Assembly (NCBI GenBank): GCA_963824085.1
Contig: CAWGNT010000026.1
Span: 32,180 to 96,179, forward strand
From: an uncultured Gammaproteobacteria bacterium
GTDB lineage: Bacteria > Pseudomonadota > Gammaproteobacteria > Chromatiales > Chromatiaceae
Reading direction: 5' to 3'
Length of the DNA stretch: 64,000 nt
Shown piece after piece: positions 50,713 to 59,587 of this stretch. How positions within the stretch are numbered: position 1 is the first letter of the stretch; every line of letters begins with the position of its first letter. Both the position numbers and the translations under genes were made by a program. The notes under the pieces are model-generated. The model saw only the letters and a list, made by a program, of their open reading frames with translations, made no database searches and was not told the origin of the DNA.

Positions 50713-52311
50713 CTACCGGTAGTCGCCGGCCTTAAGGCGGTACGTCCTGAGCTTCATGTGCACGGCACGGGGCGTGATCCCCATTGCCCTGGCCACGGCG
50801 CTGACGTTGCCGCGAAAGCGTGTCAGCGCGTCTTCGATCACCTTGGCTTCAACGTCGCGCGCCGCGTCCCTCCTTATCTGCCGCAAGGGAATTGATTGGT
50901 CGCTGCCGGGTGGATCGCTTCCCTGTGGGGCCTCGACCGAGAGGTCATCGATAACCTGCCCCTGACAGAACAAGAAGGCGTGCTCCAGCACATTCTCCAG
51001 CTCTCGGACGTTTCCTGGCCAATGGTAGCCGAGCACTTTCCTCCAAGCGCGCTCGCCCAGCGCTTTCGCCGGTTGGTGGTATCGTTCCGAGAGGCGCCGC
51101 AGGACGTGAGTCACCAGGGCGGACAGGTCACTGCGGCGTTCCCGGAGCGGGGGGATATGTATGGGTACGACGTTTACCCGATAGTAGAGGTCCGTGCGGA
51201 AGGCCCCGGAGGCGACGCGATCCTTGATATCCTGATTTGACGCGGCAATGATTCGGACGTCCGTTGTCAGGGGCTGTCTTCCGCCCACCCTCTCGAACTC
51301 ACCCTCCTGCAGCACGCGTAAGAGCCTGGCCTGCGCGGATACGGGCAAAGAGTCGATCTCATCAAGAAACAGAGTGCCGCCGTTCGCACGTTCGAAGAAC
51401 CCATGGTGCACGGTATGGGCATCGGTAAATGCGCCTTTCTCGTGCCCGAACAGCGCGCTCTCGATGAGACTCTCGGGAATCGCCCCGCAGTTGACGGCAA
51501 CGAGATCTCGATCCGCCCGGAGACTCAGAGCATGAATTGCCCGCGCAATGACCTCCTTCCCCACGCCCGTCTCGCCAGTGACCAAGACGGTCGCTGGAGT
51601 TGGGGCCACGATCGCGACGGCCTCGAGGGCGGCCTTCATTGCTGCAGATTCGGCGACGACTGTTGGCCTCTCGCGCCGAGCGGCCGCACCCCGTTGCCGA
51701 GGCGGACACCAAGCGCTTGCGAGCTTCGATTCCACGCGGGCCGTTATCTCCGCCGAGGCGGATCTTGAGATGATGGTGTCCCCGGTGTACTGGTATTCGT
51801 CGCCGTGCTTGTCCTTCGCCATGTCTCGGTCCGTGTACACGCAGACGTCACACGACCCGTCGCCGGTCGCAATCCGCTTGCGCAGCTCGACCTTGGCGTA
51901 GCCGAAGTTCCGGGCCGCGATCGCACCGAACACGCTCGCCGTCATGCGGCACAGCTCGGGGGCTTGACTGACTGTCTCCCCGAACGGGCAGCGTTCATTG
52001 CGGACCCGGATGACGCCAGGGTCGCTCGGCTCCCGCGAGAATTCGCCGCCGATACGATTCTTGATGTTGAGTATGACCGCAGCGTATTCCTCGGGCGTGA
52101 TCTCGCCGGAGAGGCCGAGCTGCTGTCGTGCGACCGCCTCCAGGCAGTGGCTGGAGGCTAGCCCCAGGTGCTCGATATAGGTCCTCTTTTGCTGGGCACT
52201 CTTGAAGCAGTGCTGCTCGGCGGCCCTGATGCTGTGGGCGATGAAGGACTGGAGAAAGGAAACCTGATCAAGGCGGAGCGACGCATCGATATCCATCGAT
52301 TGGACTTCCAT
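50713..52311 (-). CDS. sigma-54-dependent transcriptional activator (NtrC-family EBP) with a Cys-containing V4R-like sensory domain
   Basis: ORF 50713..52467. Walker A GETGVGKE, Walker B GTLFLDEI, sigma-54 contact loop present as GAFTDA, C-terminal Fis-type HTH ([20 protein letters not shown]). N-terminal domain has RCPFGE...PELCRM...[10 protein letters not shown]. Start chosen at ATG 52311. Confidence 0.85.
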
Positions 52312-52580
52312 TGGTAGCGCGGTCTCTTCAACAAGCTTAGCCGAAGCTGAGCGGTACCGAATCCCAGCTATGGCTGTTTGCGGATGGTCGGGTGCGGGTA
52401 GGCGGCCGGGCGCCAACGAGCCTCCACGGACGGAGTCGCGGTGAGTTCCGCAGCTGCCGCCTGGCATCGCAGGGGAGCGTTGGCGCAGGTCGCCTACCCG
52501 AAAAGGCGGGTGATCCTGGTGCCGTATGCGCTACCGTCGGAGATCAGGGCATTCAGTATGATGTGGCTTCCAGCGGCCCA

Positions 52581-53151: not shown

Positions 53152-53805
53152 CTATTCCCAACGGGGAGGCTGTTGACCGCTCACTCCGAACTGCGTGGCG
53201 AGGACGTCTGTCCGCGCCCGCTTCTCCGGGTCTTGCGTGGGCGGGCGCAGGCGGCGTGTCTCCACCTCCCAGACCCAGCCGCTGATGGTGACATCCTTTG
53301 GTATCAGGGGATGGTTTCTGAAGGTCTCGATGGTCTTCATGCACGCCGTATCGACGTCATCCATCATGCCGATCCATTTGGCGAACGCACCCTGGTCGAG
53401 CCGGAGCTCGGGTAACGTCGGATCCAGGGTTAGGTTGTCGATGTCGACGCCCTTGTCACGCAGCACCTTTTCTAGATCGGCGGCGTTCGCAGACAACATG
53501 CCGCACTGGGTATGCTGGACGATGACAATCTCCTTCGTGCCGAAGAAGTTGCAGGTCAGCATCGCCGAACGGATCGCATCGTCGGTGACTATGCCGCCCG
53601 CATTACGAAAACAATGCGCATCGCCGCCGCCCACCGGGGTGTCGACGCGAATACCGAGGGCCTCATCGACGGGCAAGCGCTCGTCCATGCAGGCGAGGAC
53701 CCACAAGCGGCGATTGTTGGGTCCCTCAGGTCCGTAACGGCGTCGAGTCGCCCAGTGGTCAAATTGTGTAGTTCTCGCCTCCAGTTCTTGCTTCAGCGTG
53801 GCCAT
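53152..53805 (-). CDS. beta-class carbonic anhydrase family protein, clade-D type (candidate CS2/COS hydrolase)
   Basis: 217 aa with zinc ligand motifs CxDxR (ACMDERL) and HxxC (HTQCG), plus RNAGGIVTDDAIRS, NFFGTKEI and RNHPLIPKDV. SD GAGGAGG upstream. Confidence 0.8.
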   Translation of the reverse strand: MATLKQELEARTTQFDHWATRRRYGPEGPNNRRLWVLACMDERLPVDEALGIRVDTPVGGGDAHCFRNAGGIVTDDAIRSAMLTCNFFGTKEIVIVQHTQCGMLSANAADLEKVLRDKGVDIDNLTLDPTLPELRLDQGAFAKWIGMMDDVDTACMKTIETFRNHPLIPKDVTISGWVWEVETRRLRPPTQDPEKRARTDVLATQFGVSGQQPPRWE

Positions 53806-53879: not shown

Positions 53880-53895
53880 AGCACGCACTGTGCCA
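53880..53895 (-). promoter_or_regulatory. sigma-54 (-24/-12) promoter candidate for the hydrolase gene
   Basis: Minus-strand sequence TGGCACAGTGCGTGCT against consensus TGGCAC-N5-TTGCW. GG and GC are at the correct 10-nt spacing. It lies 75-90 nt upstream of the ATG, with an A/T-rich tract just upstream. Confidence 0.6.
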
Positions 53896-56793: not shown

Positions 56794-56816
56794 GGTGACT
56801 AGTCTCAGGTGACTAG
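56794..56816 (+). repeat. tandem direct repeat GGTGACTAG-N5-GGTGACTAG
   Basis: Read directly in a locally low-GC patch. Function unknown. Confidence 0.5.
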
Positions 56817-56849
56817 AGTCGTGGCTCAGCAGGAACGTCCAGTAGGCGA

Positions 56850-56950
56850 GTCGGCGGGACGGTCGGCGCGGGCGCCGTCGAGCCTACATGGACGTATTCA
56901 CAAGGAACATCTGCCCTTGGGGCATTGCCGCCCACCGAAAGCCGGACGCC
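56850..56950 (-). repeat. palindromic repeat element, degenerate copy E
   Basis: GGTCGGCGCGGGCGCCGTCGAGCCTACATGGACGTATTCAC resembles the core of copies B, C and D. Arms poorly preserved. Confidence 0.4.
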
Positions 56951-57145
56951 TCGTCTGGTGATGGGTGGTCCCGCCCAGCCTGGCCCCATCGAACGTCACC
57001 TCCAACAAGTGCCCTTTCGTATTGCGCTTGCCTAATGCGCAATGCCGACTAGATTTCTCAGGTATGAGGGAGACGTAACGGAGTCGATTGGGACATCGTC
57101 GCTAGAGCTTATTCGTTCTTCACTTTGGGTCCATTGGAGGCCATC

Positions 57146-57952
57146 ATGAGCATCACACGCAGGTTGTTTGTCGGGGCAGCCGTCAGCGGCGCCGCGGTTG
57201 TGACGAGTGTTGCTGCTGGTGTTCTTACATCCCGCGGGGTTAGAGCAGCGCTCCCGGCCGGGACCTTTTTTGCCGCATCCCCGGCCGAGGCCATCGGTGC
57301 AGTTCTTGGTACTGACCAGAGCACGCCGGACCCGGCCGTACAGCTGGGCATTACAGACACGGTAGAGATGGCGGACATGGTGCCTCTATCCGTGACGACG
57401 ACGTTGGACAACGTGGAATCGATCACCATCGTCGCCGATAAGAACCCCAACCCCATCATTGCATACTACAGATTGGACCCGCAGTTGCAGCCGTACGTTG
57501 CGACGCGCGTGCGCTTGGCCGAGTCGGGCGACGTTCACGCGTTGGTCAAGTCTGGTGGAATTGTCCATCGAGCCACCAAGAACGTGAAAGTTGCCATTAG
57601 TGGCTGCGGCGACCCAGAGCCTGGGCCAAGCGATATCGTGATGTCCAATCGCTTCTTGATTAGGACGGCGAAGGATGGCGACGGCGTCGTAGTCCGTGCG
57701 CTGATCCATCACCCGATGACGCCGCCACGCAAGGACCCGGCGCGAGGGCTTCCGGTGTCCGGCCAGTTCATCCAAGAAGTCAAGGCGCAGGCCAACGGCA
57801 AGACCGTGCTAAACAGCGACTGGAGCGCGGGCGTGTCTCAGGATCCCTATCTGTCGTTCAAGATGCGGCACGCGGCGCAAGGCGACATCATCCGCATCAC
57901 TTGGACTGACAATGCGGGACACAGCGCCTCATCGGAGGTGACGGTCAGCTAG
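57146..57952 (+). CDS. soxYZ: fused SoxY-SoxZ sulfur-carrier protein with Tat signal
   Basis: ORF 57125..57952. ATG at 57146 lies 5 nt after GGAGG. Twin-arginine signal SITRRLFVGAA. The SoxY carrier motif VKVAISGCG is followed by linker DPEPGPSD, then a SoxZ-like domain (VVVRALIHHPMTPPRKD...ITWTDNAGHSASSEVTVS). Confidence 0.8.
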   Translation: MSITRRLFVGAAVSGAAVVTSVAAGVLTSRGVRAALPAGTFFAASPAEAIGAVLGTDQSTPDPAVQLGITDTVEMADMVPLSVTTTLDNVESITIVADKNPNPIIAYYRLDPQLQPYVATRVRLAESGDVHALVKSGGIVHRATKNVKVAISGCGDPEPGPSDIVMSNRFLIRTAKDGDGVVVRALIHHPMTPPRKDPARGLPVSGQFIQEVKAQANGKTVLNSDWSAGVSQDPYLSFKMRHAAQGDIIRITWTDNAGHSASSEVTVS

Positions 57953-58089
57953 TGCGCCGAGTCAGAAACCCAACCGGGGCGGTGACGACGGGCGAGTGTG
58001 ATTTCGCCGTGTCGGGCATTGGCGGTGCAGGATGTCGACACCGCTTCGGCATGAAGGCAGGATCAGACGGTTCGACCTCACGAGGTAGC

Positions 58090-58736
58090 CGCATTGACTT
58101 CTCCAACCAGTGAAAAACCAGGTGCTCTTTGCGTTCTTAAAGGGCCAAATGCTTTTCTTTGGTTCATCGGTTTGGCGACCAGGTTGGCCAGGCGATCAGG
58201 AAGGCCAGCCAGCAGGTGCCGAAGCTGGTTGGCACCGAGCAGGACTCGGAGATCGTTTTCGCCTCGCGCGGCACCGGATCCGACTCGACTGCCATTTTGT
58301 CGGCGCTGAAGGCCCAGCCCGAGCGCAAGGAGATCATCGCCACAGTCGTAGAGCCTCCGGCCGTGCCGAACTGCTTTGTCACGGGTGATCCGGGCCACCG
58401 GTTGCCGAACACCAGCAACGTCGCTTTCGAGTACATCGAGGGCGAGGCTACCTTATTGCTGCTGAACAAGAGAGGGAGTGCCACCTCGTCCGGCTTAGTC
58501 CGCACCTCGGGTTCGCCGGAGCCTTCGCACGTCATGCGTGCTATGGGAGCTCCGTTGACCGTCGCCCACGGGACGATCCGTTTCTCCCTGTCCCGCTACA
58601 ACTGGATGGAGGAGATCGAAAGGGTCATCTCGGCCGTGCCGCCGCTGTTGTGCAACTGCGTAAGCTCTCGCCGTATTGGAGCCAGAATGGACCGCTGGAG
58701 AACCGGCAGACGGCGTTTGTGCCGGCCTATGCATGA
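58090..58736 (+). pseudogene. nifS: decayed nifS-type cysteine desulfurase relic
   Basis: Pieces in three frames align with NifS as I remember it: FGDQVG...SDSTAILSALKAQPERKEIIATVVEPPAV joins directly to FVTGDPGHRLPNTSNVAFEYIEGEA...EPSHVMRAMG...IRFSLSRY. This removes about 240 codons, including the PLP lysine. The catalytic loop reads SSGLVRTSGS (Cys lost). The C-terminal QLRKLSPYWSQNGP is in another frame. Confidence 0.8.
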
Positions 58737-58899
58737 CGGGTTTGAAGGTCAACGGGTATCCCTCCGACCGGACCAGGAGACGTGACGGCGCTCGGCGCCA
58801 AACAGCCTCTCTGGCCCCTTGAATGATGAGGAACCAGGCTTGACTACGGCCTGAGATGAGGGATGAAGAGCGTCCGAGGGGATCATGCGCCACTATTGC

Positions 58900-59330: not shown

Positions 59331-59371
59331 TCAGACGCGTTGCGCCCGATATACCCATCTATACCCAACGA

Positions 59372-59520
59372 ACTTGGCTCTTTCGCTTCTCCACCGGAGG
59401 GGTCGGGTCGCACACGCCGGGGTGTCGGCAGCAGGGAGGCTGCGGTCCAGCCTTCAGGACGAATTCACGGCGTCCCGCGGCGGGTGCAACCCGGCCACGA
59501 AAAACGAAACGCCCGAATAG
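59372..59520 (-). repeat. palindromic repeat element, copy C
   Basis: Arms 59401-59422 / 59474-59496. The 51-nt core 59423-59473 is the reverse complement of the copy A core type. Both outer flanks present. Confidence 0.75.
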
Positions 59521-59587
59521 GACCGGCACAACGAGGCGTTGCGGCGAACCTGGTTCTGACGGGGCAGGGTTGTTCCGCCGACTCAGC

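Follow-up and report, generated by a model that had tools for sequence, protein, structure and literature searches.

A stretch of 64,000 nucleotides (nt) from an uncultured Gammaproteobacteria bacterium of the family Chromatiaceae (assembly GCA_963824085.1, contig CAWGNT010000026.1, positions 32,180 to 96,179; referred to here as the window) carries a gene in which SoxY and SoxZ are encoded as a single chain. In textbook SoxYZ the carrier cysteine lies on a free C-terminal swinging arm. Here it is the sole cysteine, Cys154, and the chain runs 114 residues beyond it. The fusion is real and is kept by selection. Comparison of sequences leads us to favour, with some reserve, the reading that the product is an uncleaved, Tat-exported periplasmic sulfane-sulfur carrier which presents Cys154 on a tethered loop. 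An initial annotation of this DNA had proposed a SoxY-SoxZ fusion with an internal carrier cysteine. Both proposals hold, since the two halves score in Pfam and lie in one continuous frame, and the cysteine, placed by that annotation near residue 161, is in fact residue 154. The gene and its main parts are as follows.

57146..57952, plus strand: soxYZ fusion gene, 268 codons and a TAG stop (open reading frame (ORF) and translation, Pfam, 28 aligned homologues, ratio of nonsynonymous to synonymous substitution rates (dN/dS))
57135..57139, plus strand: Shine-Dalgarno sequence GGAGG, 6 nt 5' of the ATG (read in the sequence; a GGAG-like block lies upstream in relatives too)
57146..57247, plus strand: twin-arginine translocation (Tat) signal peptide, residues 1-34, TRRLFVG ... 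VRA/ALP (read in the sequence; putative cleavage site)
57299..57607, plus strand: SoxY domain (Pfam residues 52-154), up to and including the carrier Cys (PF13501, TIGR04488, Foldseek)
57605-57607, plus strand: Cys154 codon, TGC (sequence; invariant in the clade)
57608..57652, plus strand: tail of the carrier arm and linker, residues 155-169, GDPEPGPSDIVMSNR (alignment; AlphaFold2 confidence below 50 for residues 153-163)
57662..57940, plus strand: SoxZ domain, Pfam residues 173-265 (PF08770, TIGR04490, Foldseek)

The ATG at 57146, rather than an upstream TTG, is taken as the start because Met1 is invariant across the 28 aligned homologues. The N-terminus, MSITRRLFVG...VRA/ALP, reads as a twin-arginine signal of the kind found on canonical SoxY, and the fused SoxYZ would be exported by the Tat system; the Tat signal and the good Shine-Dalgarno sequence had both been recognised in the initial annotation. 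PF13501 (SoxY) matches residues 52-154 with 93.5 bits (E 1.2e-26; gathering threshold 28.4 bits) and PF08770 (SoxZ) matches residues 173-265 with 88.5 bits (E 2.5e-25; gathering threshold 25 bits). The SoxZ half also passes the SoxZ_true model, TIGR04490, with 95.2 bits over residues 172-266 (cut-off 76), here as part of a longer chain and not as a separate polypeptide. The closest curated model of the SoxY half is SoxY_true, whose alignment begins at residue 4 and spans the signal region common with canonical SoxY. SoxY and SoxZ chains of the PDB match the protein by sequence at 27-36% identity.

The AlphaFold2 model, based on an alignment of 28 sequences, has a mean predicted local distance difference test score (pLDDT) of 81 and a predicted template modelling score (pTM) of 0.78. 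Both beta-sandwich domains exceed a pLDDT of 90, values below 50 occur only at signal residues 1-34 and at residues 153-163, and residues 150-169 have no predicted secondary structure. In Foldseek, the SoxY half matches 2OX5_Y and 2NNC with template modelling (TM) scores of 0.81-0.83 and the SoxZ half matches 2OX5_A, 2OXH_A and 1V8H with scores of 0.75-0.77. We are confident from this model that the chain comprises two domains with SoxY and SoxZ folds, linked by a predicted disordered segment at 153-163.

An assembly or frameshift artefact can be dismissed because independent assemblies contain uninterrupted homologues. Among 5.8 billion proteins searched, about 35 clusters of full-length fused homologues came up, 55-78% identical to the window protein and drawn from independent metagenomes and metagenome-assembled genomes, and all share its SoxY-Cys-SoxZ architecture. 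The same genome carries a second uninterrupted copy (C21:12774-13577, 76% identical), and the fused frame is likewise open at four further genome loci (L014, L016, L017 and L018). Pairwise dN/dS over the whole gene is 0.16-0.36 for all pairs and is low in both domains.

The carrier cysteine stands in the context ISGCGDPEPGPSD (ISGCGDPEPGP). Among 28 members of the clade, the Cys and the Gly at +1 are invariant (28/28 each), Asp at +2 and Glu at +4 are each present in 26, and Gly at +6 is present in 18. The rest of the linker, rich in Pro, Gly, Ala, Asp and Glu, shows no sequence conservation. The linker as a whole spans 15-21 residues and is shortest in the window protein. Since C-G-D-x-E is conserved while the remaining linker varies in both length and sequence, the segment fits a flexible tether rather than a conserved protease site. 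The Asp at +2 would coincide in position with the terminal Gly carboxylate of GGCGG, and its side-chain carboxylate might replace the missing C-terminus.

The nearest unfused relatives provide a likely source for this arrangement. These are SoxYs of 161-163 amino acids (aa) (P0036, P0038-P0042 and L015), 63-73% identical in the SoxY part, which end in GGCGD(N/S/A)ER and 2-4 further residues. Their Cys is not C-terminal: an acidic tail of 6-8 residues follows it before the stop. In L013, the locus of P0042, SoxY is followed after 54 nt by an in-frame SoxZ of 103 aa starting MVNNILIKTTK, and a single stop codon read as sense would join the two frames. At L015, SoxZ (MSDSIRIKTTK) is also in frame after SoxY, with two stops between. 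The spacer before SoxZ in the unfused sister pairs is 54 nt or more. In the fused proteins the SoxZ half opens with ..(M/I)S(D/N)x(I/L)x(R/K)T.K, read in the window protein as V-M166-S-N-R-F-L-I-R-T-A-K, and Met166 is probably the former start codon of a once-separate soxZ.

57641-57643, plus strand: Met166 codon, probable vestigial soxZ start (aligned with the SoxZ starts of L013, L015 and fused members)

Trees of the SoxY domain, which rest on 110 columns, place these proteins together. In a tree of 98 rows the 'GCGD' clade (34 fused and 7 unfused members) is monophyletic, with a support of 100 in the Shimodaira-Hasegawa-like approximate likelihood ratio test (SH-aLRT), and has a long stem among canonical-type gammaproteobacterial SoxYs. 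In a wider tree of 152 rows the clade has a support of 97, and its sister (support 98) is P0046, an unfused SoxY with an acidic tail, ending GGCGADEGE. The unfused subclade nests among the fused members with weak support. As judged from these sequences, fused and split forms can interconvert by few mutations, and we infer that fusion was the direction of the event. Residues after the Cys appear to be tolerated without fusion because tailed unfused SoxYs (the sisters and P0046) exist. The free GGCGG C-terminus would thus have been lost before the fusion, or apart from it, and cleavage need not be invoked; an uncleaved loop is favoured because the sister clade already lacks a free GGCGG terminus.

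Fused SoxYZ proteins are a known kind, and the novelty implied by the initial annotation was too high: fusions with an internal Cys are common and have been described (TIGR04557, the quinoprotein dehydrogenase-associated SoxYZ-like carrier; PMC11237559; PMC8190135). Two fused clades, SoxYZ-S2 and SoxYZ-S4, include hundreds of sequences, and the same paper argues for a possible part in carbon rather than sulfur metabolism for fused clades other than the present one (PMC11237559). Fusions had been reported earlier in Alphaproteobacteria (Ghosh et al. 2009, as cited in PMC11237559), and fused soxYZ genes with the Cys motif 'ggCs' have been described from phages, together with purifying selection (Kieft et al. 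2021, PMC8190135). We ran HMMER exhaustively against 1.84 billion cluster representatives and examined the 150 best. Besides the representative of the present clade, 59 of the other 149 are fused (248-285 aa, 23-37% identity), which answers the call of the initial annotation for other fusions and their linkers. The internal Cys is kept in (G/S/A)GC(G/A/S/V) in 57 of these 59, on linkers rich in A, P, G, S, D and E with a median length of 16 residues. Placing the Cys on a loop has therefore been widely maintained. Seven of the 59 reach TIGR04557 with E <=1e-38, roughly its cut-off score. The window protein, at 92.9 bits (cut-off 140) and with no neighbours of the pyrroloquinoline quinone (PQQ) system or SoxH-like type, is excluded from TIGR04557. 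It shows the general build of natural SoxYZ fusions, with both domains in one frame, an export signal and a conserved Cys at the junction. Traits of canonical SoxY are absent: it has no free C-terminal GGCGG, its soxZ is fused and no soxAX or soxB lies nearby. It represents a separate, and probably independent, lineage of fusions with an already described architecture.

These comparisons also bear on whether the chain stays intact. A periplasmic protease might cut the linker to leave a short-tailed SoxY and a free SoxZ, in which case fusion would only ensure 1:1 synthesis and co-export. The unfused sisters make just such products (a SoxY ending ...GCGD-x-ER.. and a SoxZ starting MSD..), the linker is disordered and exposed in the AlphaFold2 model, and Met166 and the following S(D/N) are often kept. 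Obligatory cleavage is disfavoured because the split sisters keep the D-x-E-R tail, because nothing past C-G-D-x-E-x-G is conserved as a processing site in a linker that varies from 15 to 21 residues, and because in dozens of unrelated, independent fused lineages the linkers that bear the Cys are themselves unrelated. The fusion gene has no protease gene linked to it. We consider cleavage unlikely.

The distribution of the gene was followed in 151 genomes (83 genera) sampled from the same family of the GTDB; the present genome is G000. An uninterrupted fused gene occurs in three of them: G000 and G120, with two copies each, and G047, with one. G041, from the same genus as the present genome, has an ordinary soxY-soxZ pair only. 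All holders of the fused gene also keep canonical SoxYZ, and the known holders are all sulfur oxidisers with dsr and/or sox genes.

The initial annotation had noted that no other sox genes lie nearby and had advised a search for further sox loci. Indeed no other sox gene lies nearby, and no other SoxY or SoxZ domain is present on this contig. Besides the second copy of the fusion, the assembly (5.39 Mb, 97% complete) has a third, decayed one, along with a canonical soxYZ and a TIGR04557 carrier. The canonical SoxY, on C7, ends in GGCGG, scores 169.5 bits with TIGR04488 and is accompanied by SoxZ. A gene for a rhodanese domain lies about 1.2 kb downstream of this pair (C7:140776-141201), and its product is 32% identical to the rhodanese encoded after the fused soxYZ in L014. 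The decayed copy (G000:C13 ~260130-260500, minus strand) has lost its SoxY half and has a frameshift before its SoxZ half; in the linker relic, GIGGYGDPEPGP / GIGGYGDPEPGPDARPLSGVIPDHF, the Cys is changed to Tyr, and the SoxZ half still looks intact, with 63% identity to residues 175-267. The TIGR04557 carrier (C15:539345-540208, 261.8 bits, Cys context SGGCSAPS) is fused as well, and this genome thus holds two unrelated kinds of fused SoxYZ. Around it, C15:535269-541574 (L103) forms a complete 'quinoprotein relay' set, with a SoxH-like 'quinoprotein relay zinc metallohydrolase 2' (410.8 bits) and an ATP-binding cassette (ABC) substrate-binding protein of the PQQ-dehydrogenase system (482.3 bits). 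In this genome dsrAB occurs at two loci, C24:172854-175177 and C13:291393-293687, and the assembly has no match to photosynthetic reaction-centre families.

This inventory does not sit easily with the possibility that the fused protein, uncleaved, works as an alternative carrier of the Sox pathway itself, loaded by SoxAX and hydrolysed by SoxB, with Asp156 and Glu158 standing in for the C-terminal carboxylate. Two intact copies occur in a 97%-complete assembly in which neither SoxB nor a true SoxA was found, the fused gene is never found beside soxAX or soxB, and the holders, all with canonical SoxYZ, would have no need of another carrier for the same enzymes. A doubly tethered loop, moreover, may not fit the SoxB channel. 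The pass of the SoxZ half in SoxZ_true, the closeness of the SoxY half to SoxY_true and the position of the clade among canonical-type gammaproteobacterial SoxYs are in keeping with such a role, as are the apparent coincidence of Asp+2 with the terminal Gly carboxylate of GGCGG and the presence of SoxB in other holders. SoxB is intact in G041, in G047 and in the genome of L018, and is split in G120. The absence of SoxB is not a general property of the holders, since it is intact in G047 and in the L018 genome. In all, a role within the Sox pathway proper seems doubtful to us.

The same distribution raises a further alternative, namely that the protein has a non-sulfur role, the Cys-Gly-Asp-x-Glu loop binding a metal ion or an organic electrophile, or that it is a drifting, island-borne paralogue of little use. 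The gene is rare (3/151 family genomes), stands as an orphan amid decayed genes and dispersed repeats, and one of the three copies here has decayed with loss of the Cys; a possible carbon role has been argued for other fused clades (PMC11237559). Against this, both domains are under purifying selection with an invariant Cys, the holders known are sulfur oxidisers, and nothing indicates a specific non-sulfur ligand. We hold this alternative to be quite improbable.

Our preferred reading, of an uncleaved sulfane-sulfur carrier, can be set out as follows. The ancestor would be an ordinary gammaproteobacterial soxY-soxZ pair with a SoxY that was tailed already (GGCGD-x-ER...); loss of the stop codon and spacer would have turned the former SoxZ start into Met166. 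The protein would be exported folded by Tat and stay as one chain in the periplasm, where its SoxY and SoxZ beta-sandwiches would pack like the known heterodimer. Between them would lie a flexible segment of about 17 residues, acidic and rich in Pro and Gly, with the carrier arm I-S-G-C154-G-D-P-E as its first part. Cys154 would carry sulfane sulfur, as persulfide, polysulfide or thiosulfonate adducts, presented on a loop and not on a free C-terminal arm, and the fused protein would act as an extra carrier beside the canonical SoxYZ of the same cell. The setting speaks for this reading: the genome has two dsrAB loci and a canonical SoxYZ, other holders have SoxB, and rhodanese genes adjoin the fused gene in one relative (L014) and the unfused pair in another (L013). 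Export by Tat, the sulfur cargo and the lack of cleavage are our inferences.

Several points weigh against this proposal. The SoxY half scores 100.6 bits with TIGR04488 (SoxY_true_GGCGG), under the cut-off of 125. In the SoxB-SoxYZ complex (PDB 4UWQ) what reaches into the enzyme is an arm with a free end. In this 97%-complete assembly SoxB was not found and SoxA gave only a weak match. No gene is conserved beside the fused soxYZ across the window, C21, L014, L016, L017 and L018, and no partner enzyme can be named because of this. The trees would fit either a single fusion or a fusion followed by fission, and post-export cleavage would be compatible with the sequence. Finally, natural single-chain SoxYZ proteins with a loop Cys are numerous, and the searched literature contains no biochemistry on any of them.

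The C-G-D-x-E arm itself invites speculation of two sorts. It may mark a carrier that is unable to thread SoxB and serves another partner, for example a periplasmic transferase of the rhodanese type or the handling of polysulfide that feeds the rDsr route. Alternatively, its Asp and Glu may mimic the C-terminal carboxylate, with the looped arm being accepted by Sox enzymes. We put this forward only tentatively. If the former were true, the tailed and fused SoxYZ lineages together would be a branch of carrier-based sulfur trafficking independent of Sox; if the latter, the 'free swinging arm' rule would be revised.

The genes beside each of the fused copies are as follows.

Window: YeiH-type membrane protein, 68-aa ORF with four Cys, nifS relic
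C21: STAND NTPase-like genes
L014: flavoprotein disulfide reductase, rhodanese
L016: helicase, glycosyltransferase
L017: LysR regulator
L018: phospholipase D genes

The four-Cys ORF of 68 aa is not a conserved partner, since homologues are absent both next to the other copies and from the rest of the genome. L014 has a rhodanese gene beside its fused gene and L013 has one beside its unfused pair; these rhodaneses are not orthologous (28% local identity) and were set aside as a conserved neighbour. The ORF directly downstream of the fusion gene, 58159-58785, holds only fragments of a class-V aminotransferase domain (NifS-type) and is consistent with a decayed cysteine desulfurase gene. The window and C21 copies are alike only over 57129-57964 (78.7% nucleotide identity), their DNA homology ending at the ORF ends.

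Upstream of the gene, two features were noted.

57028..57055, plus strand: candidate own promoter, TTGCCT-16 nt-TAGATT, weak, with 8/12 consensus matches (block present in fused and unfused relatives, alignment A3)
57021..57043, no strand: perfect 7-bp inverted repeat, ATTGCGC-N9-GCGCAAT, across the putative -35 (sequence; not conserved in relatives)

The block at 57028-57055 tentatively suggests a gene-specific promoter, and the inverted repeat may, equally tentatively, be an operator. A scan with the sigma-70 consensus gave nothing at threshold upstream of the fusion gene, this block included, and Rfam had no match on the flanks of the gene. We also considered that the gene might belong to the adjacent module of sigma-54 and carbon disulfide (CS2) hydrolase. 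This was not supported: no plus-strand sigma-54 site lies upstream of yeiH or soxYZ, the paralogue and the relatives are in unrelated contexts, and the two copies share no DNA homology beyond the ORF ends. Near the gene, the sole sigma-54-like site lies on the minus strand at 53880-53895 (TGGCACAGTGCGTGCT), just upstream of a beta-carbonic-anhydrase-like gene (53152-53805, minus strand) and near a sigma-54 activator gene (50713-52467); sigma-54-type matches across the window are at chance level. Members of two families of short dispersed repeats also occur here. One, at 56804-56901, is about 95 nt long, contains a hairpin (56842-56856 / 56873-56887) and has about 50 copies genome-wide; the other, at 59360-59530, is about 150 nt long, and its copies, more than 150 in number (70-87% identity), are spread over nearly all contigs. 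Both are without an Rfam match and look like repetitive extragenic palindromes (REP) or miniature inverted-repeat transposable elements (MITE).

The lineage offers a convenient test case: it is close to canonical SoxY and SoxZ, coexists with canonical SoxYZ and has unfused sister pairs that differ from the fused form essentially by one stop codon and a spacer. Comparison of fused and split forms could show whether a tethered arm enters SoxAX and SoxB or marks a separate sulfur-transfer route. In other respects it is an unremarkable paralogue in a gammaproteobacterium that oxidises sulfur.

Among known systems, the carriers of TIGR04557/SoxYZ-S2 (PMC11237559) resemble the window protein in being a single exported SoxY-SoxZ chain with one internal Cys, but the window protein sits in another part of the SoxY tree. 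The fused soxYZ of phages (PMC8190135) and SoxYZ-S4 (PMC11237559) likewise encode a fused carrier with a conserved internal Cys. Their reported arm is 'ggCs', in contrast to GCGD-x-E in the present clade, and their contexts differ: SoxYZ-S4 is linked to xoxF/fdh, a methanol-dehydrogenase setting, and the phage genes are viral, whereas the window gene is a chromosomal orphan. The unfused sisters (P0036, P0038-P0042, the last of them in L013, and L015) resemble the fused clade in their GCGD-x-E arm and in the promoter-like block upstream, and their SoxZ starts where Met166 stands in the window protein. For the structures of known SoxYZ, we take 2OX5, 2OXG and 2OXH to be Paracoccus pantotrophus SoxYZ, 2NNC to be Chlorobium limicola SoxY and 4UWQ to be a Thermus SoxB-SoxYZ complex. 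The window protein has the same folds as 2OX5 and 2NNC, a Tat signal on SoxY and, as in known SoxY, a single Cys after V-x-I-(S/G)-G at the end of the last SoxY strand. Unlike the genes of known SoxYZ, its gene stands outside any sox cluster and, whereas known SoxYZ consists of two polypeptides with a free C-terminal GGCGG, the window protein is one chain in which Cys-G-D-P-E leads through a 15-residue tether into SoxZ.

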